A DNA stretch of 64,000 nt from an uncultured virus (IMG/VR IMGVR_UViG_3300032134_000001) (taxonomy: Duplodnaviria > Heunggongvirae > Uroviricota > Caudoviricetes), in the IMG/VR virus record IMGVR_UViG_3300032134_000001; one strand, 5' to 3'. Each line of letters starts with the position of its first letter. The stretch's first letter is position 1. A program made the translations under genes and the position numbers. The notes beneath the pieces were generated by a model, which was given only the letters and a program-made list of their open reading frames with translations, was not told where the DNA came from and made no database searches. Shown here piece by piece: positions 571 to 29,164 of this stretch.

Positions 571-1010
571 CAGGCTGCCTCCACGCGGGTGAGGGTGTAG
601 CGAGCGATGCGGAGCTGCTCCGTGCTCTTCGTGATGCGGTCTGCGATCAGACTCTGCTCCGTGCGCCAGTAGGCCGAGTTGTCGAAGAGCTGTCCGATCA
701 GGCGGAGGTGGTCGCTGCCATCCTTGTTGCCGCCGCAGGTCTGGATGTAGATGTGCAGGCCCCGTCCGCAGCCCCGGCCCGTGCCGATTCGCAGCTCACT
801 CACGCCGTCGCCACAGGCGAAGACGTTGTTGGCCAGCCCACCCTGCCTTGAGGAGGGGTCTATCAGCCAGACCTGCTCCAGTCCCGCCCGATTCTTCATC
901 CTGAAGTCAGTCGAGATGGGGTCTCCCCCGTTCCCGAGAGTCGTCTTGGCACTCGTACACACCAGCTTGGGGAGCTGGTTCCTGACGTGTTCCCACACTT
1001 GTCCGCTCAT
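570..1010 (-). CDS. hypothetical protein
   Basis: Start moved to MSGQVW (ATGA overlap with upstream stop). Confidence 0.7.
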   Translation of the reverse strand: MSGQVWEHVRNQLPKLVCTSAKTTLGNGGDPISTDFRMKNRAGLEQVWLIDPSSRQGGLANNVFACGDGVSELRIGTGRGCGRGLHIYIQTCGGNKDGSDHLRLIGQLFDNSAYWRTEQSLIADRITKSTEQLRIARYTLTRVEAA

Positions 1011-1321
1011 TGTTCCTGTCCCTTGTTGTGGTCCGCCGCGACCGTTGCAAGCAGCTCCAGCGGGGTCGGCAGATCCGCGGCTGTGATGATTTCGATGACA
1101 CGCAGCCATCGGTTGTCCGGGGCCGCCAAGACAGCCACCGCTCCGGGTCCGACCAAAGCAAGCACCTGACGCAGCCGCTTCTCAGCACCCTCCTGCGTGG
1201 CCTCGCTCATCTCGGCAAGCTGCGAGTCAAGCCAAGTCTCGCCGTAGCTGCCGCAGTCGTCCTCACTCACCAGACGCCGGTGCTGTAGCGACCGGAAGAT
1301 GTACCACCGAGTGATGGGCAC
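1007..1321 (-). CDS. hypothetical protein with C-terminal TPLELLA tag
   Basis: Coupled ORF ending ...DLPTPLELLATVAADHNKGQEQ. Confidence 0.75.
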   Translation of the reverse strand: MPITRWYIFRSLQHRRLVSEDDCGSYGETWLDSQLAEMSEATQEGAEKRLRQVLALVGPGAVAVLAAPDNRWLRVIEIITAADLPTPLELLATVAADHNKGQEQ

Positions 1322-2019
1322 TACTCTTCGCCTTCCGCTTCGATCTCGTGGAAGCAGGTGATGCAGACCGAGCGGCCATCTGAGGTCGGCAGGCTCGCCC
1401 CGGTGTCGTGAGGGTCACTGGTCATGTCCGACTGCGTGAAGAGCCAGACCTGCTGACACGAGCTGCACAGCTCCACACAGCCAGGGCAGTACTCAGCCTC
1501 GTCGATGGTGGCGTGGGACTCAGACTCGGGCGAGTCGTGACCTGGCCCCGCGCCGTAGGCGTAGGCAAAGCCCATCCAGTAGTGAACCGCGTCCCCGCCG
1601 ATCCACTGGAGGTCGCCACCCACCACACCGTCGACTTTCCCGTCCGGGTAGTCCGACTCGGGGTCCGAAGCGACTTGGACGTTGCAGCAGGCACACGACC
1701 AGAGCGGTTCCACTGCTGGATACTCCCAGGCCGGGCGGCTGTCGTTGGAGCCATCGCGGTCAACGCGGGCCAGCAGCTCGTGACTGCCATCCTCGTCGGG
1801 GTTGATGAGGATGCGGTCCCGCAGGAAGGCCTCCTCGGGGTGCTGAAGACCTGCCAGGTCCTCCAGGGGTCCGTTCTTGGGGAAGGGGCTCTTCCCCGTG
1901 CAGGCAGGGCAGCCAGCGCCCTTCAGGAAGAGACTGGCCTCCCACCGGAGCATGTCCCCATGCCGGACGCCCCAGGCACCCCAGGGCTCGCCGCAGACCA
2001 CACAGGTCAGGTCACTCAT
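1321..2019 (-). CDS. Cys-rich, probably zinc-binding protein
   Basis: Six CxxC-type pairs (CVVC, CPAC, CACC, CPGC, CSSC, CITC); internal GPLEDLA. Confidence 0.75.
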   Translation of the reverse strand: MSDLTCVVCGEPWGAWGVRHGDMLRWEASLFLKGAGCPACTGKSPFPKNGPLEDLAGLQHPEEAFLRDRILINPDEDGSHELLARVDRDGSNDSRPAWEYPAVEPLWSCACCNVQVASDPESDYPDGKVDGVVGGDLQWIGGDAVHYWMGFAYAYGAGPGHDSPESESHATIDEAEYCPGCVELCSSCQQVWLFTQSDMTSDPHDTGASLPTSDGRSVCITCFHEIEAEGEE

Positions 2020-2023
2020 CGTT

Positions 2024-2410
2024 CTACTCCCTCCACATGAAGACGGTGGCAGCGATGTTGTGGTCGCCGCCGGGGATCACCATCAAGCCGTAGGCCACAC
2101 GCCGAACGAGCCCCCTCGTAGAAGCCGAAGCGAGGGGGGAGTTCCCCGGGCTGAACTCAAAGCGAAGGGTCGGGGCAAGGTCCCGAAGGAACCGCACCGC
2201 CCGATCCCGGTTGCGCTCGCCGCGACTTCTCAGGTCGCCGCAGGCGGCCAGAGCTTCCAGCGGAGTCTCCGGCGGTAACAATCCCTTCCCGGAAGGCGCT
2301 TGCCAGCCGACCACGCCCAACATGTCCCTCGGAAACTCCTCCTTGAGGCGGGCGAAAGCCTTGTCCCCCAAGCTGAGTTCCACCCAGGCAAAGCGAAGGC
2401 CGTCATCCAT
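2024..2410 (-). CDS. hypothetical protein with internal TPLEALA
   Basis: Start at MDDGLRF after a GGAGG RBS. Confidence 0.7.
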   Translation of the reverse strand: MDDGLRFAWVELSLGDKAFARLKEEFPRDMLGVVGWQAPSGKGLLPPETPLEALAACGDLRSRGERNRDRAVRFLRDLAPTLRFEFSPGNSPLASASTRGLVRRVAYGLMVIPGGDHNIAATVFMWRE

Positions 2411-2798
2411 CAGCCACCTCACGTTGGTTCCAGGCAGCTGCGACAGCTTCGACAGCCGCATCGAACTGGCCCGTCTCGACCACATGGCTTGCCGTGTCGA
2501 CACCGAGGGCTTCACCCACTGCATCCACGAGCCCTTCGGCCCAAGGCACGACGGTCGACTCCTCAACCGAGGACAGCGCAGCACGGATGCGATCAGCTCG
2601 GGCCGCGTCTTGGTCGTAGGCCAGAAGGAACGCTTCCTGCATCACAGGGTCCGCGTTGGGGTGGGCCAACGCCTTCACTTTCCGCATCAACGCGAAGGTC
2701 TTCAGCTCCGCGATCATCCCGGCCACGGCTTTCAGCTCGAAGGCGTCCAGACCGGTCATGCAGAGACGCAGGGTGTAGGTCTTGCTCACCTCAGCCAT
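2403..2798 (-). CDS. hypothetical protein
   Basis: Start at MAEVSK after GGAG; coding-like codon bias. Confidence 0.7.
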   Translation of the reverse strand: MAEVSKTYTLRLCMTGLDAFELKAVAGMIAELKTFALMRKVKALAHPNADPVMQEAFLLAYDQDAARADRIRAALSSVEESTVVPWAEGLVDAVGEALGVDTASHVVETGQFDAAVEAVAAAWNQREVADG

Positions 2799-3273: not shown

Positions 3274-3983
3274 CCCTCCTCATCGTAGAGCTGCCAGCCG
3301 TCGTACCTGAGCCAGGCATCACCGTGACAGCAAGCTGCCTCTCGGGTAGCAGCTGCGCCTTCCTTGCCCCCCAGGGGGCCGAAGCGCTGAACAGCCCAGC
3401 TCCAGGGGTTGACCTTCCAGTCCGCCAGCTCCCCCTCGTAGTCGTGACGGTCCTCGTCGTACTGCTCGTCATCCCCCATCTGGTAGTTGCCCATGTTGGG
3501 CTCGACGGGCTTCATGCGAGGACCAACCCTGATCACCGGCTCCTCAACACCTTCGCGGCCCAACGTGCTGCGGTTGTGAACCCCGAAGGCCTCCGCAGGA
3601 GTGAACCGCACCAGAGCTTCGGGGCTGGCCCCGGTGTTCGTCTCCTTGGCGTAGGGAGAGCCGTTGTAGGGCACCCACGGGCCTGCCATCTTCGCGTGCA
3701 TCATGGCCCGCTTGACCGGGAGCCCGCCGCTCGCCGCCGCTGTCGCTACTACTGCCTGCTCGAACTTGTCGGCGGCTCGGTTGAACTCCTCCTGGGCCTC
3801 CGCCGTGTAGTCGCTGTCGCTCCACTGGCCGGTGTAGGAGGGAACTTCCTGCCGCGCCTGGGCCAGCTTTTCCGTGGCCTGGACCAAGAAGATGTGCATC
3901 TGGGCCAGGGCCATCGCCGTGCCGCGGGCCGGGACCGGGTCCTTGCCCCCGAAGCCGAAGCCGTTGTCGTCGTGCTCACTCAT
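3270..3983 (-). CDS. hypothetical protein
   Basis: Start moved to MSEHDD; acidic; coupled at the 3' end. Confidence 0.7.
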   Translation of the reverse strand: MSEHDDNGFGFGGKDPVPARGTAMALAQMHIFLVQATEKLAQARQEVPSYTGQWSDSDYTAEAQEEFNRAADKFEQAVVATAAASGGLPVKRAMMHAKMAGPWVPYNGSPYAKETNTGASPEALVRFTPAEAFGVHNRSTLGREGVEEPVIRVGPRMKPVEPNMGNYQMGDDEQYDEDRHDYEGELADWKVNPWSWAVQRFGPLGGKEGAAATREAACCHGDAWLRYDGWQLYDEEG

Positions 3984-4644
3984 TGTCGTCATCCTCGGCA
4001 ACCGAGGCCAGGGCTTCCAGGGGGGTGAGGGGTGGGACCTCGTCGTGGCTGATCCACACCCAAGCGCTGACCCAACAGCCGTCCTCCCCCTCAGAGAGGC
4101 AGGCGTCGGCATCAACTTCGATGTCCTCGTCGTTCCGGTCTCCGAGGCGGAGGGTGCGGGCCGCTTCGATCAGCTCGCCGTGCTGGGGGTGGTTGAGGGT
4201 CTGCTCACGCTGGTAGGCCCGGCTTCGCTCCAGGTCAGAAGCCACGTCCCGCAGGCCGGGGATGATGCCCTGCGACCGCCGAGTCTCCAGGCGTTCCGCC
4301 CAGTCACGGAGCTGCTCGACCAGCGTGACGAGGGGGCTGTCCATCCCCCGCTCGACTGGCGTGGGGGGAGGCTCTGCCTCTTCCCCCGGCAGCGGACTGA
4401 GGAGCCAGGCCAGGATGGCGTGCATCGTCGCCGCATCGCAGCGGGTCGTGCCGTGGCTGCCGGTCCAGATCTCGACGTGCGAGCCCTTGTTCCAGATGGT
4501 GTAGGGGCTTCCCCGCCACATGAAGGTCTTGTTGGCCTGCGTGTGGGCGAGACCGGCGTCGTTCATCGCCTGCAGCGCTTGGCGGTTGAGCTGCCCGATG
4601 TCGAGGGCGGCGGGGCGGCAGATGAGGTCCAGGTTGGTGCTCAT
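3976..4644 (-). CDS. hypothetical protein with C-terminal TPLEALA tag
   Basis: ATGA overlap; ends ...LTPLEALASVAEDDDNE. Confidence 0.75.
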   Translation of the reverse strand: MSTNLDLICRPAALDIGQLNRQALQAMNDAGLAHTQANKTFMWRGSPYTIWNKGSHVEIWTGSHGTTRCDAATMHAILAWLLSPLPGEEAEPPPTPVERGMDSPLVTLVEQLRDWAERLETRRSQGIIPGLRDVASDLERSRAYQREQTLNHPQHGELIEAARTLRLGDRNDEDIEVDADACLSEGEDGCWVSAWVWISHDEVPPLTPLEALASVAEDDDNE

Positions 4645-5879
4645 TCCCACTCCCCGTTGTTCTCGTCGTCGAGCCGAAGGACGTGTCCCCAGGCCCCCCG
4701 GGTGGGGTCGCTGCCACCCTGAGTGAGGACCCAGATCACGCCCTGGAGCGACTCCGGCATGGTCTGAGGCACGCCGATGTACCCGTCGGTGAAGGCGATG
4801 ACCACGGAGTCGTTGCGCTCCTCGTCCATCAGCTTGAAGGCCGGGCAGAAGTCTGACCCGCCCCCGCCTGCCAGGGCTTCGAGGACTGCTTCGGCCTCCG
4901 TCACGTCCGTCAGGTCAGAGTGGATGGCAGCGTCGATGATGATGACCCGGATGGTCAGGTCCAGGTCCTCGCAGATGAAGGCGACTTCAGGGAAGATGTA
5001 CTTCTCGGTCCCCATCTGCGAGCCGCTGGTGTCCCAGAAGATCGTCACGTCCGGGAAGCTCTTGCGACGAGTCCCCATCAGAATCTCACCGACCGCCGCA
5101 CTCCGGCGGGAAGGCCGGAGGTAGGTCAGGTCTGGCTTGCCTGCGTGTTCCCCCAAGAAGTTCGACAGGAGCGTGAGCCAGTTGACCTTGGGGTCGAGAA
5201 TCTCGTCGATGAGGAGCTTGAGCCCACCCGGCAGCGTGCCCTGACCCTTCTGCTGCTCGTGGACCTGCGCCGCCGCGATGACCTGGATGGCCCACTCTCG
5301 CTCCAGCCGTTCCTGTGCCGCCGTGTCGCCTTGGCCTGCTGCCTTGCCGCCCGGCGTGGAGGAGAGGTCAGGTCGGCAGTCCTGTCCGATGCCCTGCGAG
5401 CCGTCGCTCTTGCCCTTTCCCTTGCCGTTGCCCTTTCCCTTGCCGCCGCTCTTGGGGAGCTGATTGTAGATCTCCTCCGCGGCCATGCCAGCGTACTTCG
5501 GGTCGTGCAGCCCGTTCGGGGGGAGCTGGATGTTGTTCCGCAGCCCACCGGCGATGAAGTCCAGGATGATGAGATTGATGGCGTGGTCGTGCGCCACGTT
5601 CCAACCTCGGAGGTCTCGGCCTCCCATGCGCTCGAAGAAGCGCATCGCCGGATGCAGCACCTCGTGGGCGATGAGGCCGCGAACCTGAGGCTCCGTGAGC
5701 GTGGCCATGAACTCTTCGTTGAGCACCAGGGTGCCGTCAGGCCCCACGCCTGCCGTCGGGACCATGTCCTGTGGCGCTGCCACTCGGGGCCGGAGGCGAA
5801 GCGTCATGAAGCCGAGGAAGGGGATCTTCGCGGCCAGGTAGGTCCGGGCCTCACTGACCCGTGCGAGTACGTCACTCAT
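4641..5879 (-). CDS. DUF2201-type HExxH metallopeptidase plus VWA domain protein
   Basis: HEVLH motif, G/K-rich linker, MIDAS DTSGS, GGGGSDF and FTDG; lies downstream of a MoxR-type ATPase. Confidence 0.88.
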   Translation of the reverse strand: MSDVLARVSEARTYLAAKIPFLGFMTLRLRPRVAAPQDMVPTAGVGPDGTLVLNEEFMATLTEPQVRGLIAHEVLHPAMRFFERMGGRDLRGWNVAHDHAINLIILDFIAGGLRNNIQLPPNGLHDPKYAGMAAEEIYNQLPKSGGKGKGNGKGKGKSDGSQGIGQDCRPDLSSTPGGKAAGQGDTAAQERLEREWAIQVIAAAQVHEQQKGQGTLPGGLKLLIDEILDPKVNWLTLLSNFLGEHAGKPDLTYLRPSRRSAAVGEILMGTRRKSFPDVTIFWDTSGSQMGTEKYIFPEVAFICEDLDLTIRVIIIDAAIHSDLTDVTEAEAVLEALAGGGGSDFCPAFKLMDEERNDSVVIAFTDGYIGVPQTMPESLQGVIWVLTQGGSDPTRGAWGHVLRLDDENNGEWE

Positions 5880-6660: not shown

Positions 6661-7821
6661 TCACTTCTCCAGGGTCTTCGCGAGCCAGCCAATCAGCTCG
6701 CGGATTTCCGGGTCGTTTCCACCCCGGCGGGCCGCGACGAGCAGGTCCTGCATCCGGCCCTGGCAGGCCGTGAAGGTGCTGATGCTCACTGCGATGTACT
6801 CCCGGTTCGTGCTCGTGACCCAGGCCAAAGCCCGGAGGTACTTCGTGAGCGTCTCCTGGGCCTTGCCGCCCTTCGCCTTGCGGGCAGCCACCTCACCGAG
6901 ACCGGTCGCCATCGCAATCACCCGGTCGGGCTTGTTGCCGAGGACGCCGAGGTCGGGAAGCGCCTGCTTGGGGTTCTCCAGCACCCGCTCCGGGTCCACC
7001 AGCTCTCGCCGGAGCATACGGAAGGCAGCGAACTCCGAGGCCACACCCTCCCCGACGAGGCCGGAGGCGATGTCGATGACCGTCTCTTCGGGGAGCGCCC
7101 CCGAGACCTTGCCCAGCAGGGACCAGCTCCGAGGCGTCGCGAAGGCGCCGCGCTTGTCGGCGTCCTTGGGCAGCCGGGAGAAGTGCTCCTTCTTGTAGTG
7201 GAGGAAGGCCGGGACATCGGTCTCGTACCCCTGCGCCATGTACCAGGCTTCCCAGCCCTTGAAGTCGGGCGAGAAGGGCAGGATGCAGACCGAGTTGCGG
7301 AAGTGGGCCGGGAGCGTGCTGGCTGCGGACTTGTCCTCTCGCCGGTTGCCCGTGACGATGACGAAGACGCCGGGAGACAGCTTCATGTCGTGGATGCGGC
7401 GCTCAAGCGACACCTGCCGACAGGCGACCTGGACCTGGGCCCCTGCCGCGGGCAGGTCGTCGAGGATGAGGACGCCGTAGGCCCCCTCCGCGCAGAAGGG
7501 AGCCAGCCAGCTCTGGGGGATGTAGCGGGTCACCCGCTTCCCTGTGGAGCCGCACAGCTCCTTGGTGTCGGGCAGGCCCATGAGGTCCTCGGGCAGCATG
7601 GAGCTGAGGTCGAGGGCACCGTGGGGGGCCAGCACGGCAGGCGGGGCGTTGGGGTTGCGGGCCTGGACGTCTTCGGTCATCAGCTCCGCGAGGAACTTGC
7701 CTGCGGCCGTCTTGCCGACTCCGGGCGGTCCGAGCACGCAGACCGTGATCGGCTCACGGTCCTTCTTCTGGGCATCGCGCCACATCTTGAAGCAGGTGTT
7801 GGCCAAGGTGGTGAAGTTCAT
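6661..7821 (-). CDS. MoxR-like AAA+ ATPase
   Basis: Walker A GPPGVGKT, Walker B LILDD, TGNRRED sensor, ATPRSW; start at MNFTTL after AGAGGA. Confidence 0.88.
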   Translation of the reverse strand: MNFTTLANTCFKMWRDAQKKDREPITVCVLGPPGVGKTAAGKFLAELMTEDVQARNPNAPPAVLAPHGALDLSSMLPEDLMGLPDTKELCGSTGKRVTRYIPQSWLAPFCAEGAYGVLILDDLPAAGAQVQVACRQVSLERRIHDMKLSPGVFVIVTGNRREDKSAASTLPAHFRNSVCILPFSPDFKGWEAWYMAQGYETDVPAFLHYKKEHFSRLPKDADKRGAFATPRSWSLLGKVSGALPEETVIDIASGLVGEGVASEFAAFRMLRRELVDPERVLENPKQALPDLGVLGNKPDRVIAMATGLGEVAARKAKGGKAQETLTKYLRALAWVTSTNREYIAVSISTFTACQGRMQDLLVAARRGGNDPEIRELIGWLAKTLEK

Positions 7822-8266: not shown

Positions 8267-8468
8267 CGCTCTCGTCCTCTCGTGGTTGGTAAGTGCGTGC
8301 GAGCAGCTCCAGGTCTGTGACGTCTCGCTCCTCCAGCCGGTAGTGGCGGGTGGGCTGCGTCTTCCTGAGCCGCTCCATCTGCCGGGTCGCACCCTCGCGG
8401 GTGGTCCAGCCGTAGTGGCCTGCGTCCAGCTCTTTCCACCAGCCGACGCGGTAGTCAATCCCCGGCAT
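8259..8468 (-). CDS. small protein with C-terminal TDLELLA tag
   Basis: MPGIDY... after GAGG; ends ...VTDLELLARTYQPREDESDG. Confidence 0.7.
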   Translation of the reverse strand: MPGIDYRVGWWKELDAGHYGWTTREGATRQMERLRKTQPTRHYRLEERDVTDLELLARTYQPREDESDG

Positions 8469-8691
8469 GAGACACCTCGGCAAGCAGCTCAAGTGGAGTC
8501 ATCGTCCGGGAGTCGATCCAGTGCTCCAGCTCGGGGCGGTGCCGGTTCCCGTGCAGGACCCAGGCCTCCGTGCGGGCCTTGTTCAGGCACCAGGGGCCGT
8601 AGGAGATCTTGTCCACTGGCTTCGAGCCAGCAGTCCCCAGCCGAGCGCGCGAAGCCACTCGGTACTCGACCCAAAGCTCAGCCGGGCTCAT
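8455..8691 (-). CDS. small protein with C-terminal TPLELLA tag
   Basis: MSPAELW...MTPLELLAEVSHAGD. Confidence 0.7.
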   Translation of the reverse strand: MSPAELWVEYRVASRARLGTAGSKPVDKISYGPWCLNKARTEAWVLHGNRHRPELEHWIDSRTMTPLELLAEVSHAGD

Positions 8692-9487
8692 GGGTGACCT
8701 CGGCAAGCTGCTCCAGTGGCGTGCCTGCGTTGTGGTCTGGGAGGTAGGCACACACCTCGCCGTCCTGGTCGAAGTTGATGAAGCGGCAGCTCACTCTGCG
8801 AGCCAGCTCCAGGATGGGCTGGAGCCAGGGCTCAGCGTCCTTGTCGTGCTCCTGGTCGCCCAAGAAGACGATCCAGCCGCACTTGTGAGCCACGTAGCGA
8901 GGGTTCGGCTCGTCCCGGATGGCGGGCCAAAGCAGCTTGCCCCAAGGGTACTGCTGGCCCGCCCACTCCAGCACTTCCTGCGGGATGTGCGCTGTCGAGA
9001 GGTCCAGCGCCGAGCAGAAGGCCTGGTTGTCGAACACGCCGGAGTGGTCCAGCATGGTCAGCGCTCGGCACCCCTCAGGCTCGTCCCCCCAGGAGGAGCC
9101 ACCAGCCACCCACCAGTGCTGGCCCCCCAGGAGCAGCACCGTCACGAGCGTGCTGCTGGCGGCGTCCTGGTAGGCAGTGACCAGCTCCCCGGCCAGAGAG
9201 CGTCGGCCCCAGGTCGCGACCGGATCATCGTCCTGCGACTCGGCCAGGTCTTCCAGGGGGGCCTCGGGCCTCTCCTGGTACGCCTCGTCGAGGCTCTCCT
9301 CGCCGCCCAGTGCGAAGAAGCTGAAGAACTCCTCCAGGTCTCCTCGACTCACCCCAGCGGCGTAGGTGTGGAGCGCCGCTTCGATGGCAGGCGGGGTGCC
9401 CAGTCCGACGTTCCGGGGGTGGGAGCAGACTCCCAGAATCAGGTCAGCTCCCACCGTGTGCTTCCTCCATGGTGTCGTCGTCGTCAA
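8678..9487 (-). CDS. hypothetical protein with two tags (APLEDLA internal, TPLEQLA C-terminal)
   Basis: ORF track; coding-like bias. Confidence 0.75.
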   Translation of the reverse strand: MTTTTPWRKHTVGADLILGVCSHPRNVGLGTPPAIEAALHTYAAGVSRGDLEEFFSFFALGGEESLDEAYQERPEAPLEDLAESQDDDPVATWGRRSLAGELVTAYQDAASSTLVTVLLLGGQHWWVAGGSSWGDEPEGCRALTMLDHSGVFDNQAFCSALDLSTAHIPQEVLEWAGQQYPWGKLLWPAIRDEPNPRYVAHKCGWIVFLGDQEHDKDAEPWLQPILELARRVSCRFINFDQDGEVCAYLPDHNAGTPLEQLAEVTHEPG

Positions 9488-9923: not shown

Positions 9924-10591
9924 GCGACCTCGATGAAGCCGCAAGAGTCGACTCGCATCGCCTTGCCGCCGGGCAGGACGAAGACATCGCCCACCGCGCT
10001 GCTGCGGGCCTTCCGGGCGAGGCTCTTCACGCCGTCGTTGTCCTGCCAGGCGCGGTCGACGTGGTTGGTCTGCTGCCAAGCGTGGCTCAGCGCCTCGTCC
10101 TCGTCGGCCGCCCCGACGATGACCCAGGCCACCTGCTTGAAGTCGCTCGGCCACGGTGCTGGGGGCTGGATGTCCCACATGTAGGACCCGGCGAAGTTGG
10201 GATGCTGGGCATGGAAGACCGCCACGAGCCCCGGCTCGACTTGGGGAATCTTCACCTCGGGCAGCGTAAGGCGCTGGCTCCAGGCCAGAATCTCCAGGTC
10301 AGAGAGGCCCGCGGTCTGCACACCGTCCTCCGGGTCTTCCTCGTTCTCCGCGGTGGCGATGAACATCGGCCCGATGATGTCCCACTCCTGGCCTGCCGCG
10401 TCCGTGACCATCCGGTTGAACGGCAGGTGGCGAATCCGCCCCTCCTCGTTGAACCAGAGGTCGATGTCGGGGGTCAGCGAGACACACTGAATCAGGCCCC
10501 CCACGATGGCCTGCATGGCATCCAAGTCGAGCTTCTCCAGCTCGCGCACTTCCGGCTGCTTCCCCGGCTCACACACGATGATCTTCTGCAC
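9920..10591 (-). CDS. DUF3846-like domain protein
   Basis: LDAMQAIVGGLIQCV, LWFNEEG, LPFNR and IIGPMFI pattern; SDLEILA at the end of the domain. Confidence 0.75.
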   Translation of the reverse strand: MQKIIVCEPGKQPEVRELEKLDLDAMQAIVGGLIQCVSLTPDIDLWFNEEGRIRHLPFNRMVTDAAGQEWDIIGPMFIATAENEEDPEDGVQTAGLSDLEILAWSQRLTLPEVKIPQVEPGLVAVFHAQHPNFAGSYMWDIQPPAPWPSDFKQVAWVIVGAADEDEALSHAWQQTNHVDRAWQDNDGVKSLARKARSSAVGDVFVLPGGKAMRVDSCGFIEVA

Positions 10592-10594: not shown

Positions 10595-11035
10595 CTACTC
10601 CTGGTTGTGGACCGAAGCGAGAAGCTCCAGGTCCGAGACACTCAGCCGGTGCCGGGCTTCGTCGCCCAGTCCGTGGTGAATCAGTCGAATCAAGTTGGTG
10701 TCGACGACCGCCGACCCGCCGGACTGTCAGTCCCAGCCGGTGTAGTCACACCCGGCCTCCGCATAGGCGTAGCGCCCATCCTTCAGGCGGAAGAGGCCCA
10801 TCCAAGAGGACTCGTCGTTCGCGCCGTCGGACATAGCCAAGATCTGCACCACGTCCTCGCGGGTGAACTCCGCCGTCCCCGGGCCGGGGTAGCCGAGGAT
10901 GCTCATGTCCTTCTTGAAGCCATCGGTGGCCCGGACGTCGGGCTCGTTGTCCGGCCCCCACGAGCTGTCGCCATCCGGGGGTCCACAGCACTCGAAGACC
11001 TTCGCCCAGTCGTAGTCGTCCAGCTCATCCAGCAT
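10595..11035 (-). CDS. 146-aa protein with in-frame UGA (10727-10729); candidate selenoprotein
   Basis: Frame stays open 43 codons past the UGA to a TAG next to the following gene; the extension ends in the SDLELLA tag; SECIS-like hairpin 11 nt after the UGA. Confidence 0.65.
10700..10715 (-). promoter_or_regulatory. candidate bacterial SECIS apical hairpin GUCGGC-GGUC-GUCGAC
   Basis: 6-bp stem with GGUC loop, starting at +12 from the UGA; lower stem CAGUC/GACUG possible. Confidence 0.55.
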
Positions 11036-11038: not shown

Positions 11039-11335
11039 TCATCCTCTGTGGGTGTCCGCGAGAAGCTCCAGCGGCGTCATGTGTTGCACCTTCCCGAGAC
11101 GGTCGTTCACCAGATGGCCTCGCCAGGTGACGCGGTACCGGAAGGAGACGTCGTACTGCCACTCAGGGGGGTCAGCCTTTCGGGCCACCAGGCCCTTACG
11201 CCGGAGAGACCGAAGGGCCGAGCTGGCCTTCTGGTGGCGCCAGTCGGGATACTGGCTGAGCTGCCGGAGAACCGACTGCTCCGCCACACCCAGCGTGACT
11301 CGAATCTCAGGAATGACCACCTGCGTGCGACCCAT
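11039..11335 (-). CDS. small winged-helix-like protein with C-terminal TPLELLA tag
   Basis: ALRSLRRKGLV...YRVTWRG pattern; ends MTPLELLADTHRG. Confidence 0.7.
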   Translation of the reverse strand: MGRTQVVIPEIRVTLGVAEQSVLRQLSQYPDWRHQKASSALRSLRRKGLVARKADPPEWQYDVSFRYRVTWRGHLVNDRLGKVQHMTPLELLADTHRG

Positions 11336-12177
11336 CAGGTGGCCTCAGCCTTCTGGCGACGCTCTTCACGAGCCTTCTGCTCACGCTTCTTGCCTGCCAG
11401 GTACTCGTGAACCCGGTGAGTCTTCCTGCCGTGCTTCCTCTCATCGCAGCCCCACCAGCCGTGGTGCTCCCGCTCGATGACTCCCTCACTCCCGTCGAAG
11501 GTGAAGGTCTCCCAGGGCATCCCTTCCCGAAGGCTCTCGCCCTCGAAGAAGAAGGTTCTTCCGTCGATGTCAATGACCGGACCCATGCGGTCATTCCGGT
11601 CGGTGCGGACCTGGTAGAGGTCCTTCTCCTGGGCAGCCAGGTGGCTTCGGACGATGCGAGCCAGCTGGCTCATGTAGAAGCCCTTCCGATACCAGAGCTG
11701 CCGATCTCGCACCGTGTACGCGTGGAAGGCCCCGATCAGCTCCTGGTCGAAGCCCAGCTCGTCACGCCAGCGAGCCTCCCAGTCCTTCTCGGCCATCAAG
11801 TGGGCCTGTGTTCCCGCAAGCTGCTCCAGGGGACCCTCGTCCCAGTCCTTGAGGCGCCAGTCGTCGGAGTTGTGCCGCTCCAGGCAGCGCTTGTCGTGCG
11901 GCCCATCGTGCCACTCGTGGCTGTAGGACCGGCACGGCTTGTTCTGGTAGCGGCTCCACCCGAAGCTGTAGACCAGGAACGACAGCTTGTCGTCTTCGCC
12001 CGACGGCACGAAGGCAGAGCGGTGGATCTGCCCCCGCCGGTTGAAGTCGGTGTCAGAGGGCTCCTTGCCTGCGTAGATCCGCTCGAAGAGCGCGGTCCCG
12101 ACCAGCTGGTGCTTGATGAGAACCACGGCAACGCCGTCGTACATGGCCAGGATGGCCTTCATGGAGCGGTCCTTCAT
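11335..12177 (-). CDS. hypothetical protein with internal GPLEQLA
   Basis: Coupled at both ends. Confidence 0.75.
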   Translation of the reverse strand: MKDRSMKAILAMYDGVAVVLIKHQLVGTALFERIYAGKEPSDTDFNRRGQIHRSAFVPSGEDDKLSFLVYSFGWSRYQNKPCRSYSHEWHDGPHDKRCLERHNSDDWRLKDWDEGPLEQLAGTQAHLMAEKDWEARWRDELGFDQELIGAFHAYTVRDRQLWYRKGFYMSQLARIVRSHLAAQEKDLYQVRTDRNDRMGPVIDIDGRTFFFEGESLREGMPWETFTFDGSEGVIEREHHGWWGCDERKHGRKTHRVHEYLAGKKREQKAREERRQKAEAT

Positions 12178-17295: not shown

Positions 17296-18188
17296 GTGTG
17301 AACTCCCCATCCCGGGCCGCCATCGTTGATGCGGACGGCGAAGGTGGCGTGGCCCATCCCGTGCAGGAGGAGGCCACCGTTGAAGGCGAAGCCGTAGCGG
17401 AGGTACTCCACCGACCCGCCCAGCTCGTAGGTCCCGACGCTGCACCGCGAGCAGCCGTAGTAGCTGTGACCCTCGTGGTCTTCGGCTTCGTGCGTGGCCG
17501 CATACTCGGCCCGCTTGGCCTTGGTCCAGCTCGGGGTCCAGTGGCGGGAGTCGTCCAGTTCCTTGCGGAGCTTGAGCTTCTCGGCAGCCTTGTCCAAAGC
17601 TGCGGACCAGCGACGGCTGCTTTCGTCAGAGTCCAGCTCCTCGCCGGAGGCTGTCTTGCCCTGGTAGGACTCCTCGTCGACCTCCCGGGCCGCAGCGTGG
17701 ACCTGCGCGGTCGTGTAGGGCCGGTGCCAGAGGATGCCGAAGCCTCCGAAGGTGCCGTCGTCGTAGAGCACCACCTTGTAGCCGGGAGCCTTGACCACCT
17801 GAGCCTCGCGGCCCTCCGCGGCAGCCTCGACCTCGAACTCCCGCTCACCGCCGTAGGAAGCGAGGTAGCTCAGCTTCTCGTCCAGCGACACCGCGAGGTG
17901 CAGCGCCAGCTCACGCGGGCCGACTGCCTCGGAGCCGGTGGCCGCGAGGGCCTCCAGCGGACTCAGCTCAGCCACCGTGCAGAGACCCTTGAGGAAGCCA
18001 GCGATGTTCGCGAGCCGGGCAGCGCCTGACTCCTCGAAGCTCAGGCCACCGCCCCAAGGCGTCATCCCGCGAGCAGTACACCGGCGGTTGAAGGCCAAGA
18101 TCTTCTTGAGGGAAGCCTCACGAGCCTCACTCAACTCCTGGTCTCGCCGTGCTCGGCGTTGCTCCAGGGTTTCTTTCACAGCGTCCAT
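17292..18188 (-). CDS. hypothetical protein with internal SPLEALA
   Basis: ORF track; C-terminal FNGGLLLHG...GWGVHT. Confidence 0.75.
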   Translation of the reverse strand: MDAVKETLEQRRARRDQELSEAREASLKKILAFNRRCTARGMTPWGGGLSFEESGAARLANIAGFLKGLCTVAELSPLEALAATGSEAVGPRELALHLAVSLDEKLSYLASYGGEREFEVEAAAEGREAQVVKAPGYKVVLYDDGTFGGFGILWHRPYTTAQVHAAAREVDEESYQGKTASGEELDSDESSRRWSAALDKAAEKLKLRKELDDSRHWTPSWTKAKRAEYAATHEAEDHEGHSYYGCSRCSVGTYELGGSVEYLRYGFAFNGGLLLHGMGHATFAVRINDGGPGWGVHT

Positions 18189-20532: not shown

Positions 20533-20868
20533 CTACGTCAGCTTCGGCTCCTCGGGCGGGAGTTCGTAGGCGAGCTGCTCCAACAGACCGACGGCTGACT
20601 CGTACCCGTCGGGAGGCTCGGCTCGGTAGCTGATGCTGGAGGGCTTCGTCGCCCAGGCGAGCGTGAGGACAGGAATCTCCGACGTCTGAGGCGGCACCCC
20701 GGGCATGAGCAGGGGCTGGATCGCGTTCACGATGTGATCGGTCGGGACCTCGTGCCACTCCTTGCACTTCTCGTTGTGGTCCGCCGCCCAGGCGATGGCA
20801 TCGGGATGGTGGAGCGGGATGTAGAGCTTGCACTTCACGCAGCAGACGTAGTTCTTCACGAGTTCCAT
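20533..20868 (-). CDS. small zinc-finger-like protein with LLEQLA tag variant
   Basis: CVKC...H...C; C-terminal VGLLEQLAYE. Confidence 0.7.
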   Translation of the reverse strand: MELVKNYVCCVKCKLYIPLHHPDAIAWAADHNEKCKEWHEVPTDHIVNAIQPLLMPGVPPQTSEIPVLTLAWATKPSSISYRAEPPDGYESAVGLLEQLAYELPPEEPKLT

Positions 20869-21101
20869 CCGGGCTCCTTCGCGATGGCCGCAAGCTGTTC
20901 GAGGGGGGTGAGGTCAGCCCGGTAGTCGGGCGGGGGAGGCAGTCTCTCGTGGACCTTGGTCATCAGCTGGCCGCAGGTGCAGGGAGCACCAGGACTCCAG
21001 CCAGCCCACTGACTGCACCTGTAGACACGACAACGGCGACAGACCACGAAGCTGGGGTAGGTCTCCCCGCGCTTCCACGACCAGTGGATGGACTCACTCA
21101 C
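20856..21101 (-). CDS. small zinc-finger-like protein with C-terminal TPLEQLA tag
   Basis: CRRC...CTCG; ends LTPLEQLAAIAKEPGWNS. Confidence 0.7.
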   Translation of the reverse strand: MSESIHWSWKRGETYPSFVVCRRCRVYRCSQWAGWSPGAPCTCGQLMTKVHERLPPPPDYRADLTPLEQLAAIAKEPGWNS

Positions 21102-21297: not shown

Positions 21298-21686
21298 GAC
21301 TCGTCCTCCCACTCGCTGGCGATGCCAGCCAGCATCTCCAGCGGGCTGATGTCTGTGGTGTAGTCCTCGGGGATCTCATCCATGTCCGCGAAGAAGCGGA
21401 AGCCACCGCAGTTGCGGTGCTTCACGGCCCAGGTGCCGCGCCCGACGTAGCTCCGGCTCATCCACTCGTCGCAGATCGTGCAGGCGACGTAGTCCATGTG
21501 CTCGAACCCGCCGACGATGTTGTCGAAGAGAGCGACAGGCTCCAGCCCATCCCGCTGGCCCTTCAGCCCCGCGAAGTAGGCCTTCCTGACCTCCGGCTCC
21601 CAGTCCCTCATGTGCTCCAGGAGCGACTTGTCAGCCCTGACCTGCCGCTCTCCAGGCGTCTTCCCGTCCCAATCACGCTGTGCCAT
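21294..21686 (-). CDS. zinc-finger-like protein with C-terminal SPLEMLA tag
   Basis: YVACTIC...KHRNC; paralog-like to the next ORF. Confidence 0.75.
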   Translation of the reverse strand: MAQRDWDGKTPGERQVRADKSLLEHMRDWEPEVRKAYFAGLKGQRDGLEPVALFDNIVGGFEHMDYVACTICDEWMSRSYVGRGTWAVKHRNCGGFRFFADMDEIPEDYTTDISPLEMLAGIASEWEDES

Positions 21687-21921
21687 TCTCGGCCTCCCAT
21701 GCGTCCGCGACAGACGCCAGTGCCTCCAAGTCTCCCAGCTCTGGGGTCCAGTCGGGGCCAGGCGGCGTGTCGAAGAAGATGAAGCAGTCGCAGTTCGCGT
21801 GCTTCTGACCCCACTTGTCGCGGGCGACGCTGTCGTTCTTCGTGTAGGCGAGACAGGCTCGGCAGGCGGCGTACTTCATGTGCCCGAAGTTGGCCGTGAG
21901 CTTCTGGAAGGCAAAGCCCAT
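21673..21921 (-). CDS. zinc-finger-like protein with C-terminal GDLEALA tag
   Basis: MGFAFQK start (TGATG overlap); YAACRAC...KHANC. Confidence 0.7.
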   Translation of the reverse strand: MGFAFQKLTANFGHMKYAACRACLAYTKNDSVARDKWGQKHANCDCFIFFDTPPGPDWTPELGDLEALASVADAWEAENGTA

Positions 21922-22116
21922 CACCCGATCTCGATGATGGATTTGAAGACGCCATCGAGGCCCAGCCTCATGCGGACGGGGCCCTTGGGCACCACATCTC
22001 GATCCCAGCCCAGGCAGAGGGTCCACGAGGCCTTCGGGGGCAGGCACACAGGGTGAGTCCCGTAGTCGCGCTTCCCCCGGAAGAGCTTGTTGTTGTGCAG
22101 CCGGGCTGGAGACTGG

Positions 22117-22551
22117 TCAAGAGAGTTCCTCTCGGACAGCCATGAGCAGCTTTCCAAGCCAGTTCTCGCCGGGGATGGAGGCGTGCTCTGAGCAGCGGCA
22201 GTCCCCCCACTCTTGATCGTGCCAGGTGTTGCCCTCGATCAGCTCCTCCTCGCCCGTCGCCAGGAGGCGCTTGCCGAGGTGCTCGTGCCGTCGGAACTTC
22301 TGGAGAAGGAGCTTCCCCATGACCCCGCGCTTGATCTCCTCCCAGTCCTCGCGCAGCGTGACAGCCCGACCGAGCCGCTTGGCTCTTCCTGGTGTGGCCG
22401 CGCCGGCGATGATGCGGCGCTGACTGGCGCTGAGAGTCTTCGCGGCCTGGAAGGCGTACTCCGTGGAGTCGTATTCCTCGTCCTCGAAGGTCACCTGCGC
22501 AGGGAAGAAGTTGCTGAGGTAGCGATGCACGCCATCGAAGCTGTCGATCAT
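22117..22551 (-). CDS. NADAR (YbiA-like) family protein
   Basis: LSNFFP, EYAFQAAK, AKRLGR, LLATGEEELIEGNTWHD and GENWLGKLLMAVR. Confidence 0.92.
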   Translation of the reverse strand: MIDSFDGVHRYLSNFFPAQVTFEDEEYDSTEYAFQAAKTLSASQRRIIAGAATPGRAKRLGRAVTLREDWEEIKRGVMGKLLLQKFRRHEHLGKRLLATGEEELIEGNTWHDQEWGDCRCSEHASIPGENWLGKLLMAVREELS

Positions 22552-22931
22552 TCCTCACCGCCCTCGTGTGCGATCTCTGCCAGCATCTCCAGCGGTGTTG
22601 CTTGGACCTTCGGGTAGATGAGGCGCTGCCAGAGCACCTTGCCGTCCTCGCCGGTCTCCCTCATCTGCCAGATGCCCTTGTCCGCGTGCAAGCCCCCGAC
22701 CCCGTCACACCAGGACGGGATGCGCTTCTCGTCCGGTCCTATGAGGTCGCCCCAGCGGTAGATCCAGAAGCTGCCCTTCGGCACGCCCAAGATCTCACGG
22801 ACGAACTCCGTGGCCTCTTCGGGAATCTGCTTCCTGTTCGGGGGCGGGACCCTCCGACGCGCACGCCGCCGCTTCCGTCTCAGCCCCGGCACCGCCAGCG
22901 AAGCCACCCACCCTCGGACCGGAGGGCTCAT
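22548..22931 (-). CDS. hypothetical protein with C-terminal TPLEMLA tag
   Basis: Coupled ORF. Confidence 0.7.
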   Translation of the reverse strand: MSPPVRGWVASLAVPGLRRKRRRARRRVPPPNRKQIPEEATEFVREILGVPKGSFWIYRWGDLIGPDEKRIPSWCDGVGGLHADKGIWQMRETGEDGKVLWQRLIYPKVQATPLEMLAEIAHEGGEE

Positions 22932-24797: not shown

Positions 24798-24802
24798 GAG
24801 CA

Positions 24803-25093
24803 ATGGGGATGAACTGGCTGCGTGAGGGCACCAAGGCTGTTGTCCCGAAGGGCACGGAGGTCCATGGCAAGTTCGGCGGCTGGGCCGGAGGGGTTCCTTC
24901 TTCCCGCAGGTCTGTCGTGACCGTCTGGTACTTCTACGCCCCTGCCGGCAAGCAAGTGGAGCGCAGCCGCGCTGTTTATGCGGGCTGGACGAACCATCGC
25001 TTCCATTCGCAGGGTCGCTGGTGTCGCATCGAGGATCTCCGTGAGGTGCCCACCGACTTGGAGCGCTTGGCTGAGGTCGGGGCAGCACTGTGA
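24803..25093 (+). CDS. small protein with C-terminal TDLERLA tag
   Basis: AGGAG RBS; ends PTDLERLAEVGAAL. Confidence 0.7.
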   Translation: MGMNWLREGTKAVVPKGTEVHGKFGGWAGGVPSSRRSVVTVWYFYAPAGKQVERSRAVYAGWTNHRFHSQGRWCRIEDLREVPTDLERLAEVGAAL

Positions 25094-25763: not shown

Positions 25764-25764
25764 C

Positions 25765-26312: not shown

Positions 26313-26313
26313 C

Positions 26314-26607
26314 GTGGGAGATCGCTGCCGCTTCAACGGCTGCTTCTGGGGTGTTGGCCACGAGGGGCCTCACGAGACGCGATGTCGAGGCTGCGGCGGG
26401 ACCAACCTGGTCGCGTCGATGGCTGTTCGGAGGGCCTACTTCTACGCCGATGCTGACGGGGATGGCCTGCCGCGGCCCAGCGACGAGGACATCCGGCACT
26501 GGACGACTTGTCCGTGCCGGCGACCGACGCCGCTTGAGTTGCTGGCTGCGGTCGGAAAGGAGCTGGACGCCACCTCCCTGCCGGAGTATGACAGTTGGCA
26601 CGGATAG
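26314..26607 (+). CDS. Cys-rich small protein with TPLELLA tag
   Basis: ...CRRPTPLELLAAVGKE. Confidence 0.7.
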   Translation: MGDRCRFNGCFWGVGHEGPHETRCRGCGGTNLVASMAVRRAYFYADADGDGLPRPSDEDIRHWTTCPCRRPTPLELLAAVGKELDATSLPEYDSWHG

Positions 26608-26610: not shown

Positions 26611-26616
26611 TCCTCT

Positions 26617-27494: not shown

Positions 27495-27714
27495 GAAGAG
27501 AGCGCTGCGGAAGCAGCTCCGTGTGGCAGCGAAGGGCTTGGCAGCCGAAGGTGTCGAGGTTCTCTTTGAGGGAGAGCAGGCCGTGACGCTGCTGACCGAT
27601 GAAATCGGGGAGCAGGCGCAGCACATGGCTGTTGTGGTCTCCGTCAACCCGCATGTGACGGCAGCCATCGCAGAGCTGCTCGACCAGATGTTCACGCCCG
27701 AAGGAGAGGAGTGA
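27481..27714 (+). CDS. hypothetical protein
   Basis: MNRSEKR after AGGAG. Confidence 0.7.
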   Translation: MNRSEKRALRKQLRVAAKGLAAEGVEVLFEGEQAVTLLTDEIGEQAQHMAVVVSVNPHVTAAIAELLDQMFTPEGEE

Positions 27715-28118
27715 TGTCCTGGTACAAGGCCGAGCAGAAGAAGTACCTTCAGCTGGCCGTGCTCAAGCGCGACCTGGCTGAGGTGCTTCAGTGGCCCTTC
27801 CTGCCGAACCTGTCCTGGTGGCAGGCTTGGCCGGGTGGTTGGGCGCTGCACGGCCGCCCTGCCGGGATGGGGATGCAGGATGCCCAGCGGTCCATCAACT
27901 TCGAGCTACCGGAGAGTGTGCGGGACCCGGCAGAAGCTCTGAGACTGGCGATCGAGAAGGTCGCCGCTCACCCGGAGCGGTTGGGTGAGCGGGTCCGGTG
28001 GTTCTGCCCCTCACATGGCTGGGAGGAGATCGTGCCGCGCGGTGAGATGCACTCCGGGTGCCCGAAGTGTGGCGGCTACTACTGCGAACCCTGGCCCCCG
28101 CCAGCAGGAGAAGAGTGA
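27711..28118 (+). CDS. hypothetical protein with C-terminal zinc ribbon
   Basis: CPSH...CPKC. Confidence 0.7.
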   Translation: MMSWYKAEQKKYLQLAVLKRDLAEVLQWPFLPNLSWWQAWPGGWALHGRPAGMGMQDAQRSINFELPESVRDPAEALRLAIEKVAAHPERLGERVRWFCPSHGWEEIVPRGEMHSGCPKCGGYYCEPWPPPAGEE

Positions 28119-28693
28119 TGCCCTACCGGTCAGATGGCGAGCGCATGAGGGCCTTTGTGAAGACCGATTGGGGCGGTCAAGTGCTCAGGGGAGAGGTCCG
28201 GTACGCCGACAACGCTATCAAGCACCCGGAGAGGCAGTTCTTCGAGATGATGACGCTGGATGCTGGCGGCCCCTACTTCATGCGGGTGTCAGACCCAGAG
28301 ACCCAGACGCTGAGCCTGCTCCTCAAGCCACTGGTGGACGAGGCGGCCTTCAAGGCTGAGCACGGCGCTTTCATGGAGGAGAAGTGGCGGAAAGGCGACC
28401 TCTGGGCTCGCTGCTACGCGGACAAGGGTGCGACTGTCACCCTCTTGGAGGAGGAGAACTCCGGCTGGCGGGCGGTCCTGCCCGAGGAGGAAGACAACCT
28501 CGTTGTTCGTGCTCTGGGGGGCCTGAGCGCGCGAAAGGGGGAGATCTTGGAGCGGCTCATCATGCGAGCCGGCCTTCAGTGGGGGCGCGAGTCGGATTGG
28601 ACTTCGGGTAGGTCGATGCTGTCCGATGGGCAGACCCGGCAGGGTGCTGTGCTTCACCTGTCGGGAGCCTCAGAGATTGACGTTTGGCACTGA
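28118..28693 (+). CDS. hypothetical protein
   Basis: MPYRSD start (TGATG overlap). Confidence 0.7.
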   Translation: MPYRSDGERMRAFVKTDWGGQVLRGEVRYADNAIKHPERQFFEMMTLDAGGPYFMRVSDPETQTLSLLLKPLVDEAAFKAEHGAFMEEKWRKGDLWARCYADKGATVTLLEEENSGWRAVLPEEEDNLVVRALGGLSARKGEILERLIMRAGLQWGRESDWTSGRSMLSDGQTRQGAVLHLSGASEIDVWH

Positions 28694-28705
28694 CGCGGGT
28701 AGGTT
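28677..28705 (+). promoter_or_regulatory. sigma70-type promoter TTGACG-N17-TAGGTT with operator variant TGACG-TT-TGGCA over the -35
   Basis: Exact 17-nt spacer; ATG 6 nt after the -10. Confidence 0.7.
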
Positions 28706-28711
28706 CATGTC

Positions 28712-29164
28712 ATGTCAACCGATCCATCCGAAGTAGATCGTGAGCTGCTGGAGCTGTGTGGCTACGTCCGAGTCCACGACATCCTCGTAGGCGAAGGGCA
28801 GTCCGTGAGCTTCAATCTCATCAACGGGTGGAAGCAGGTGGCGCTCACCTCCTCCGACCTGGGGGGTGAAGGCAGTGCTCTGGGCTCGACAAAGCAGGTC
28901 ACTGTCTGGGCGCTCCCAGGAAGCGCGGGGCTGAAGTCCTGGCGCTACGACATCACGGTCCAGTATGGCGGGGAGGATCTCAACGTGGTCGCCATGCGGT
29001 CGGCGGCCGGAGAGCAGGAAGAGCTGATCACGCGTCGGGGCAAGCTGGTGGCGCTGGACCTGCCGACCCCTCTGGAGATGCTGGCTGCGCAGGCCGACCA
29101 CTTCTCAGACGACGGTGTTCAGGATGAGGGCCCACCGGGTGCCGGAGAGGACGGGGCTGACTGA
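28712..29164 (+). CDS. hypothetical protein with TPLEMLA tag
   Basis: ...DLPTPLEMLAAQAD. Confidence 0.75.
   Translation: MSTDPSEVDRELLELCGYVRVHDILVGEGQSVSFNLINGWKQVALTSSDLGGEGSALGSTKQVTVWALPGSAGLKSWRYDITVQYGGEDLNVVAMRSAAGEQEELITRRGKLVALDLPTPLEMLAAQADHFSDDGVQDEGPPGAGEDGAD

Follow-up and report, generated by a model that had tools for sequence, protein, structure and literature searches.

A short peptide motif shared by unrelated non-structural proteins of a large uncultured phage is a candidate docking helix

We analysed a stretch of 64,000 nucleotides (the window) from the uncultured virus IMGVR_UViG_3300032134_000001 (Caudoviricetes), and describe here a peptide motif of about ten residues that recurs near the C-termini of many of its proteins. 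Its relatives are classed as viral, and a large uncultured phage is the best description of the element. Of the 120 proteins called, 62 lie to the left of 31 kilobases (kb) and are referred to as the left block, while the other 58 form the right block. Recognisable gene products are a MoxR ATPase and von Willebrand factor A (vWA)-peptidase pair resembling N4 gp24/gp25, a Dda-like helicase, an SNF2 helicase, ParB, a PD-(D/E)XK nuclease, an M15 peptidase, a lysozyme, an HNH endonuclease, and NADAR, DUF3846, DUF5983, DUF6011 and DUF3987 proteins. Family profile scans gave no match to a terminase, portal or capsid family among the window proteins, and a scan of 88 of them against NCBIfam added no useful match. 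The segment from 31 to 45 kb, labelled a virion block in an earlier reading made from the sequence alone, encodes membrane proteins, two cell-wall hydrolases and three very basic proteins, and the label is unsupported.

The strict form of the motif, [TS][PD]LE.LA, occurs 16 times in the window proteins, against a mean of 0.013 (maximum 1) in 2000 within-protein shuffles; a looser form, [TSG][PDL][LM][ED].LA, occurs 22 times, against 0.12 (maximum 4). Six-frame translation gives the same totals of 16 and 22, and thus there are no copies in shadow frames. The left block holds 21 of the loose matches and the right block one, and no loose match was found between 31 and 57 kb in either the window proteins or the six-frame scan. 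Fifteen copies, which we call tags, are C-terminal, lying 5 to 25 residues ahead of the stop codon in genes that are all left of 31 kb (Table 1). Their carriers, mostly small and non-structural, make up 15 of the 62 left-block proteins, or about a quarter. A profile built from the 15 tags finds 18 sites above 8 bits in the window and none in 30 shuffled proteomes; it is important to note that 15 of these sites are the training rows themselves, the other three being internal copies in open reading frames (ORFs) 17292, 2024 and 11335. In the 21 viral loci that we collected, four of which have a guanine-plus-cytosine (GC) content of 0.64–0.66, the strict motif has no copies.

The sequence-only reading had reported the motif on more than 20 proteins and none in the 31–45-kb segment. 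Its 15 C-terminal copies are all present in the coding frame of the ORFs that it named, the gap in the 31–45-kb segment is real, and the excess holds against both shuffled proteins and shadow frames. The internal and variant copies that it listed, in ORFs 1321, 2024, 8678, 9920, 11335, 13586, 17292, 29105, 57477 and 59016, are likewise present. However, only about 15 copies are clear C-terminal tags, and the remainder are internal look-alikes of uneven standing. Those outside Table 1 are TPLEALA in ORF 2024, for which coding support is weak, STLEALA at residue 240 of ORF 13586, SPMDELA in ORF 29105 and SSLDQLA in ORF 57477/57534. The SDLEILA of ORF 9920 is probably not a tag, judging by its orthologue in the related locus L002, which reads TYEQIKF at that place. 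The internal copy of ORF 17292 has its Glu replaced by Val in the L002 orthologue.

Table 1. Copies of the motif and the genes of the candidate reader pair in the window (aa, amino acids; bits, score against the 15-tag profile; L001 and L002, related loci)
Feature	Position	Strand	Carrier and remarks
Tag TPLELLA	1046..1066	-	ORF 1007-1321 (104 aa), 12 residues before stop; 18.6 bits
Tag TPLEALA	4006..4026	-	ORF 3976-4644 (222 aa), 9 residues before stop
Tag TDLELLA	8298..8318	-	ORF 8259-8468 (69 aa); SDIELLA in L001 orthologue
Tag TPLELLA	8479..8499	-	ORF 8455-8616 (53 aa; 98 aa from first start codon); 23.3 bits, best match
Tag TPLEQLA	8702..8722	-	DUF5983 protein, ORF 8678-9454 (258 aa)
Tag SDLELLA	10616..10636	-	ORF 10595-10693 (32 aa; weak gene call)
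Tag TPLELLA	11057..11077	-	ORF 11039-11335 (98 aa)
Variant tag GLLEQLA	20569..20589	-	C-terminal, ORF 20533-20868 (111 aa); 9.0 bits
Tag TPLEQLA	20889..20909	-	ORF 20856-20963 (35 aa; 81 aa from first start)
Tag SPLEMLA	21327..21347	-	ORF 21294-21686 (130 aa); paralogue of ORF 21673
Tag GDLEALA	21715..21735	-	ORF 21673-21924 (83 aa)
Tag TPLEMLA	22578..22598	-	ORF 22548-22892 (114 aa)
Tag TDLERLA	25052..25072	+	ORF 24803-25093 (96 aa)
Tag TPLELLA	26527..26547	+	ORF 26314-26607 (97 aa)
Tag TPLEMLA	29066..29086	+	ORF 28712-29164 (150 aa), 25 residues before stop
Internal GPLEDLA	1852..1872	-	ORF 1321-2019 (232 aa); GPMENLA in L001 orthologue
Internal look-alike APLEDLA	9242..9262	-	DUF5983 protein, residues 65-71 (coordinates by arithmetic from residue numbers); similar form in all 12 aligned homologues
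Internal look-alike SDLEILA	10283..10303	-	ORF 9920-10591, after DUF3846 domain; 2.8 bits
Internal GPLEQLA	11815..11835	-	ORF 11335-12177 (280 aa); 8.5 bits
Internal SPLEALA	17943..17963	-	ORF 17292-18188 (298 aa); TPLVALA in L002 orthologue; 10.7 bits
Internal variant TPMEQLA	59274..59294	+	ORF 59016-59630; sole loose match right of 31 kb; 6.8 bits
Zincin metallopeptidase and vWA protein (DUF2201_N + DUF2201), candidate reader	4641..5879	-	
MoxR-type AAA+ ATPase, candidate reader component	6661..7821	-	inside tag-gene array; phrog_1297, E 3e-46

Aligned on the motif, the 15 tags read phi-[TS]-[PD]-L-E-x-L-A-x-[VI]-A, with conserved columns running from a hydrophobic residue or Pro at -1 through Ala at +9. 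The spacing of Thr/Ser and a Glu three residues on (S/T-x-x-E) is what we take to be a helix N-cap pattern, and the Leu, Leu, Ala and Val/Ala positions would then form one hydrophobic face. We modelled the DUF5983 protein with AlphaFold2 from a 12-row alignment, reaching a mean predicted local distance difference test score (pLDDT) of 78. The tag forms a helix in this model, at residues 246–253, with coil at 230–245 ahead of it; mean pLDDT is 58 for residues 241–250 and 45 for 251–258. Coil ahead of the helix together with low pLDDT fits a tethered helix, rather than a part of the domain. The internal APLEDLA of the same protein is modelled as helix 66–73, a regular helix of the fold. Foldseek retrieved no PDB structure similar to the model at E ≤ 0.001. 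The short acidic tail that often follows the tag is not specific to tagged proteins and is not part of the tag: counted over the last eight positions, acidic residues average 2.33 where there is a tag, 1.74 in those left-block proteins that lack one, and 0.90 across the right block, and the GGAG/GAGG-type ribosome-binding sites of the following genes fall within these tails.

The copies sit near gene ends in tightly packed operons and on the strand of their carrier gene, as would suit a motif that is the side effect of some DNA- or RNA-level signal placed at the ends of genes, be it a promoter, a terminator, translational coupling or a recombination site. The nucleotide sequences argue against this. 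Mean pairwise DNA identity among the 15 C-terminal tags is 0.645, against 0.667 ± 0.014 for simulated sequences that encode the same peptides with the codon usage of the window. All four codons of Thr, Pro and Ala are used in the motif, Ser is encoded by both TCN and AGY, and the copies stand anywhere from 5 to 25 codons ahead of the stop. Since synonymous sites vary as codon usage predicts, and nucleotide conservation is no higher than peptide and codon usage together account for, we conclude that selection acts on the peptide. The same holds for three sister phages that carry a second version of the tag (described below), in which observed and simulated identities are 0.630 and 0.644 (G001), 0.643 and 0.641 (G002), and 0.651 and 0.627 (G003), the small excess in G003 being found in a genome where paralogues exist. 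A chance product of high GC content, the other form of this explanation, is opposed by the absence of shadow-frame copies, by the lack of strict copies in the 21 viral loci, and by two genomes of GC 0.62 and 0.67 in which the tag is at chance level (G005 and G006, below). We regard either form as very improbable. As a separate observation, the tags make more use of rare codons than expected: CTT and TTG account for 10 of the 30 codons of the two conserved Leu, against about 14% genome-wide, and GCT and GCA for 8 of the 15 codons of the tag Ala, against 32%, a difference that a weaker codon bias of small genes might by itself explain.

All-against-all BLASTP of the 120 proteins shows that tagged proteins align with one another only over 12–26 residues at the tag. 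Two pairs depart from this, namely 21294 and 21673, which are paralogues with 38% identity over 78 residues, and 21294 and 29105, between which there is a weak match. Thus we reject a single homologous family of carriers. Conservation of the tag could be followed best in the DUF5983 protein, for which a collection of 5.8 billion proteins yielded 11 homologues. All eight at 43–62% identity end in G-[TSG]-P-[LIM]-E-Q-L-A followed by variable residues, while all four at 35–39% identity stop before the tag. The tag is better conserved in this family than the protein that carries it, and, being kept by close orthologues and lacking in distant homologues, it behaves as a lineage-specific addition. 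Four related metagenome loci (L001, L002, L003 and L006) are syntenic for the DUF5983 gene, a small gene and the MoxR gene, which are followed in L001 and L006 by the vWA-peptidase gene, and the L001 orthologues of ORFs 8678, 8259 and 1321 have kept the tag.

Other searches for relatives returned little. Megablast of the 1–12-kb and 31–45-kb segments against phage records found no close relative, and neither tblastn of a 685-residue window protein against phages nor scans of viral contigs with that protein and with the helicase found any. A scan of genome contigs and viral contigs with the DUF5983 alignment was also negative. Among the 5.8 billion proteins ORF 3976 found only itself, and the ESM Atlas held no usable match to ORF 3976 or ORF 28712.

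We had used homologues of the vWA-peptidase to collect the 21 viral contigs mentioned above. When patterns shared by the last 40 residues of their proteins were counted de novo, one locus (L018) stood out, in which P-S-A-V-[DE]-x-L-[AG]-x-L-A stands near the end of 7 of 32 genes. Scanning with the pattern [STG][PAD][LVIM][ED].L[AG], with expectations taken from shuffles, we found this second version on about 10% of the proteins of three phage genomes. In G003 (275,101 bp with terminal repeats, 100% complete; 381 genes) there are 37 matches against 2.16 expected (maximum 6), 25 of them within 25 residues of the C-terminus. The corresponding figures are 19 against 0.80, with 12 near the C-terminus, in G001 (119,266 bp, 43% complete; 159 genes), and 24 against 1.18, with 14 near the C-terminus, in G002 (159,664 bp, 58% complete; 211 genes). 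The consensus, (E)-P-S-A-[VI]-[DE]-x-L-[AG]-x-[LVI]-A, has the same layout as the window tag, position for position.

G003 is a myovirus with its own replisome, and its tagged genes keep away from its structural genes: 2 of 37 lie within 178–275 kb, the part of the genome with the genes for sheath, baseplate and tape measure, and the densest arrays are at 96–116 and 131–177 kb. Tagged proteins of the sister phages are small (median 110–118 residues, against 142–173 for all genes), and 66 of 78 have no Pfam match. Among the rest, C-terminal copies are found on an N6_N4 DNA methylase, a Zeta_toxin-like kinase and an L12_C-domain protein, and internal copies in DnaB_C, DUF6011, PolA, ResIII and HNH proteins. 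Some carriers are paralogous, forming the 'WEPSAVDRLAALAEP' group. The family A DNA polymerase of G003 (40880–43639; L042:880-3636) has, besides an internal tag-like copy, a weak intein-splicing match at residues 469–544. In all, only 3 of the 120 window proteins (MoxR, the vWA-peptidase and the DUF6011 protein) have BLASTP matches in G001–G003.

Four further records carry the MoxR/vWA pair, yet the number of tags in them does not rise above chance: G004 (137 kb, 85% complete; 1 match against 0.54 expected), G005 (81 kb, complete; 1 against 0.60), G006 (64 kb, complete; 0 against 0.44) and G007 (67 kb, 36% complete; 2 against 0.34). The last 40 residues of their proteins show no other shared short tag, and a position-by-position test of the last 10 residues revealed no convincing end-anchored tag in the other vWA-bearing loci. 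G004 shares 13 window proteins, among them DUF3987 (62% identity), the SNF2 helicase (52%), the M15 peptidase (50%) and ParB (45%), and is by this measure a closer relative of the window phage than are the tag-bearing sister phages, which share three. In a tree of vWA proteins the phages with the S-A-V-D version form one clade (support 100/100), the window group another, and G004 with G007 a third; all three fall inside the same supported clade, with their branching order not resolved and with tag status assigned for a minority of the homologues. Two features of G004 are noted in passing. It contains a tandem array of 15 same-strand genes (46475–61137, L070–L071; 44–322 residues) with variable bodies and a common C-terminal end of about 40 residues, ...KKRLVVELRADGKLHIKTPIFKY, and it has MoxR-like matches at 42140–42943, 102260–103333 and 121636–122586, two of which are 40–42% and one 28% identical to the window MoxR.

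Our favoured explanation of these results is that the motif is probably a portable docking helix, a short linear motif selected at the peptide level and recognised by a partner common to all of its carriers. The helix, of three turns, would be capped by Thr/Ser and Glu and held on a flexible linker 2–25 residues from the C-terminus of many unrelated non-structural proteins; it would plug all of these into one reader that might route, remodel, process or concentrate them. We favour such a helix because of the enrichment of the motif, the selection on the peptide, its grafting onto unrelated protein bodies and the persistence of two lineage versions. The sequence-only reading had reached a similar interpretation, of which selection on the peptide, unrelated carriers and an N-capped helix stand, as does the lineage-specific addition that it had proposed to look for, while the virion block and the acidic tail do not.

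Several points weigh against this explanation. The single reader is inferred, both the partner and the binding being hypothetical, and single recognition is made less certain by the variable distance from the C-terminus and the existence of internal copies. Any N-capped helix shows S/T-x-x-E, and the conservation could therefore be partly structural. The cases of ORFs 9920 and 17292 show that the pattern alone over-calls. Our gene set (120 called proteins, 20,316 residues) comes from our own codon-usage caller and is not a validated annotation, carrier ORFs of 32–53 residues are uncertain gene calls, and the contig that holds the window is at least 167 kb long, of which our analysis covers 64 kb.

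An explanation that dispenses with a partner is that the motif is an intrinsic cap or solubility element, or a mini-module spread by repeated duplication of 3' gene ends. The S/T-x-x-E portion of the motif corresponds to a generic helix cap, some carriers are indeed paralogous (21294/21673, and the group noted above in G001–G003), and the internal copy of the DUF5983 protein is a regular helix of its fold. Yet the tag is better conserved than its carriers, while the residues that follow it vary; it occurs on unrelated folds and is modelled as detached from the domain; its DNA bears no sign of recent copying; and the same layout is found in two phage groups that have 3 of 120 window proteins in common. 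We therefore consider an element without a partner distinctly unlikely.

If the docking helix does have a reader, our first candidate is a host hub, namely a protein of a high-GC host group, followed by the MoxR ATPase/vWA-metallopeptidase pair and then by a capsid or compartment receptor. The first is possible but falls well short of probable, each of the other two is unlikely to much the same degree, and something else takes up the rest. A host hub is ranked first because the distribution of the tag cuts across shared gene content. The tag-bearing lineages have a GC content of 0.59–0.67, against 0.55 in G004 and 0.52 in G007, a contrast that would fit a host reader; however, G005 (0.62) and G006 (0.67) are also without the tag.

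The MoxR/vWA-peptidase pair, which would make a special case of the docking helix, is ranked second because of its position, its conservation, its intact metal-ion-dependent adhesion site (MIDAS) and HExxH motif, and the invariant acidic residue of the tag. The tag would be bound at its invariant Glu/Asp by the MIDAS metal of the vWA domain; remodelling of the carrier would fall to the ATPase, and its trimming or destruction to the peptidase, which would amount to a tag-directed machine for chaperoning, processing or timed turnover. The pair sits within the tag-gene array, the MoxR gene being 0.8 kb from the vWA gene, and is the best-conserved part of the related loci: MoxR is 64–82% identical in L001, L002, L003 and L006, where its adjacent position is syntenic, and the vWA protein 75% identical in L001, against 45–63% for tagged neighbours. 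HExxH and the MIDAS DxSxS are invariant in 84 aligned vWA-peptidase homologues, as are D283, T284, S285, G286, S287 and D365, with T364 nearly so. The pair is also among the only three window proteins common to the sister phages with the other version; it is important to note that their possession of it follows by construction, given that they were found through the vWA protein.

Published work lends some plausibility to such a reader. Kaur et al. 2020 (PMC7159879) describe MIDAS sites as binding extended peptides via an acidic residue, and Iyer et al. 2021 (PMC7824862) report a MoxR and metallopeptidase-vWA pair in 'group 2.2' jumbo phages, proposed to act as chaperone and peptidase with a role in virion assembly and processing. 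Our window resembles these co-chaperone systems in having a pair with intact HExxH and MIDAS, here inside the tag array. It differs in that the carriers are non-structural, whereas Iyer et al. propose virion assembly, and the available parts of neither paper (PMC7824862, PMC7159879) name a shared tag on phage proteins. Kaur et al. 2020 also describe effector-associated domains (EADs) as adaptor domains of vWA-MoxR conflict systems. We rejected homotypic pairing of this type, in which core component and effectors would bear one and the same adaptor module, given that EADs are domains and not ten-residue motifs, and that the window MoxR and vWA proteins give no match to the tag pattern.

Against the pair as reader, tag and pair do not occur together in G004–G007, which have the pair but show no more tags than chance would give, G005 and G006 being complete genomes and G004 sharing as many as 13 window proteins. 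Moreover, the pair of G003 (2–4.4 kb) lies far from the densest tag arrays, and the vWA tree leaves the sisterhood of the two tag-bearing clades unsettled. Overall we judge it unlikely that this pair reads the tag. Co-folding of the vWA-metallopeptidase (84-row alignment) with a 53-residue tagged protein (15-row alignment), Mg and Zn gave an interface score (ipSAE) of 0.00 in both runs, a result that speaks neither for nor against binding. For the pair itself, the PDB contains a match (E 6e-4) to the N-terminal peptidase domain of the vWA protein (4641–5879), namely the minimal zincin MJ1213, a PDB sequence search turned up no solved structure of the whole vWA-peptidase family, and phmmer of MoxR against PDB sequences found nothing. 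Homologues of the vWA protein at 41–75% identity occur on metagenome contigs of up to 178 kb.

The third candidate corresponds to a tag that would act as a loading signal. By binding a shell, scaffold or portal surface it would bring its carriers either into a compartment that the phage builds or into the capsid, from which they would be injected along with the DNA. Encapsulin cargo-loading peptides, the capsid targeting sequence of T4 internal proteins (which is N-terminal) and microcompartment encapsulation peptides (amphipathic helices similar in length to our tag) all consist of a short terminal peptide on a flexible linker that is bound by one receptor surface. Like these, the window tag is a short, linker-joined terminal peptide on unrelated proteins, and on the analogy of their format it may serve to load cargo. 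The carriers include enzymes usable at entry, such as the DNA methylase and the kinase-like protein, and the sister phages are myoviruses of about 275 kb. However, the known signals tag a handful of proteins encoded beside shell genes, while here 15 of 62 left-block proteins and about 10% of three jumbo-phage proteomes are tagged, which would be a large cargo set. The tag genes also lie outside the structural block, as the distribution in G003 illustrates, and in the 64 kb of the window, beyond which the contig continues for at least another 100 kb, no protein matched a family of shells, encapsulins or microcompartments. Loading of this kind seems to us rather unlikely.

The docking helix may also be compared with hub-binding tails, in which one short terminal motif on many proteins serves one hub. 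Examples are the sliding-clamp-binding motifs, such as the bacterial QL[SD]LF and the tails of T4 gp43, gp55 and gp33; the XB peptide of SspB for ClpX; and the poxvirus PRANC, a truncated F-box carried by dozens of varied ankyrin proteins. The tag is like these in its format, and it is none of those that we compared. The profile of the 15 tags has no Gln at its first position, no Phe and no terminal Phe/Leu pair, and so does not correspond to the bacterial clamp motif. An ssrA-type or other extreme C-terminal degron is rejected, as the tags stop 5–25 residues short of the C-terminus and are followed by variable final residues. F-box and PRANC domains are rejected likewise, with no Pfam match among the 120 window proteins (E ≤ 0.001) or the 78 tagged sister-phage proteins, and with a tag of about 10 residues against about 40. 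In the literature that we searched, which did not extend to supplementary files, there is no published description of such a tag.

The tag thus looks like a portable address label. More tentatively, we suggest that large phages may run a hitherto undescribed protein-addressing system, in which an N-capped helix on 10–25% of the non-structural proteins is bound by one receptor (a host hub or the MoxR/vWA-peptidase), exists in the lineage versions T-P-L-E-x-L-A and S-A-V-D-x-L-A, and is kept in phages that otherwise share almost no genes. If one reader does recognise the helix, many of the 'dark' small proteins of big uncultured phages would be organised by a single interaction, and finding that reader would provide a common functional handle on them: their destination, the timing of their removal, or the host machine on which they gather. 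Being short, portable and defined by sequence, the tag can be fused to reporters and can be used to find further members and, by genome profiling, the reader. A ready comparative design is provided by phages that carry the two versions and otherwise have little in common, together with a closer relative that is free of the tag.

Two further observations concern the right block. Adjacent genes at 52426–53391 and 53398–54354 on the minus strand encode paralogues of 321 and 318 residues that are 60% identical, have ends rich in Ser, Thr and Gly, and match no family. In the proteins of the 31–45.3-kb segment (31309–44767, plus strand) the dipeptide Asn-Pro is enriched, with 25 occurrences against 7.1 ± 2.4 in 500 shuffles (maximum 17), and often follows basic or Ala residues (..RRNP.., ..KANP.., ..RENP..). 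Most of the enrichment comes from ORFs 31702–33759, 33938–34954 and 35330–37063, the products of which are very basic (pI about 10–11) and without a family match. The dipeptide might mark a site of processing or belong to another shared motif.

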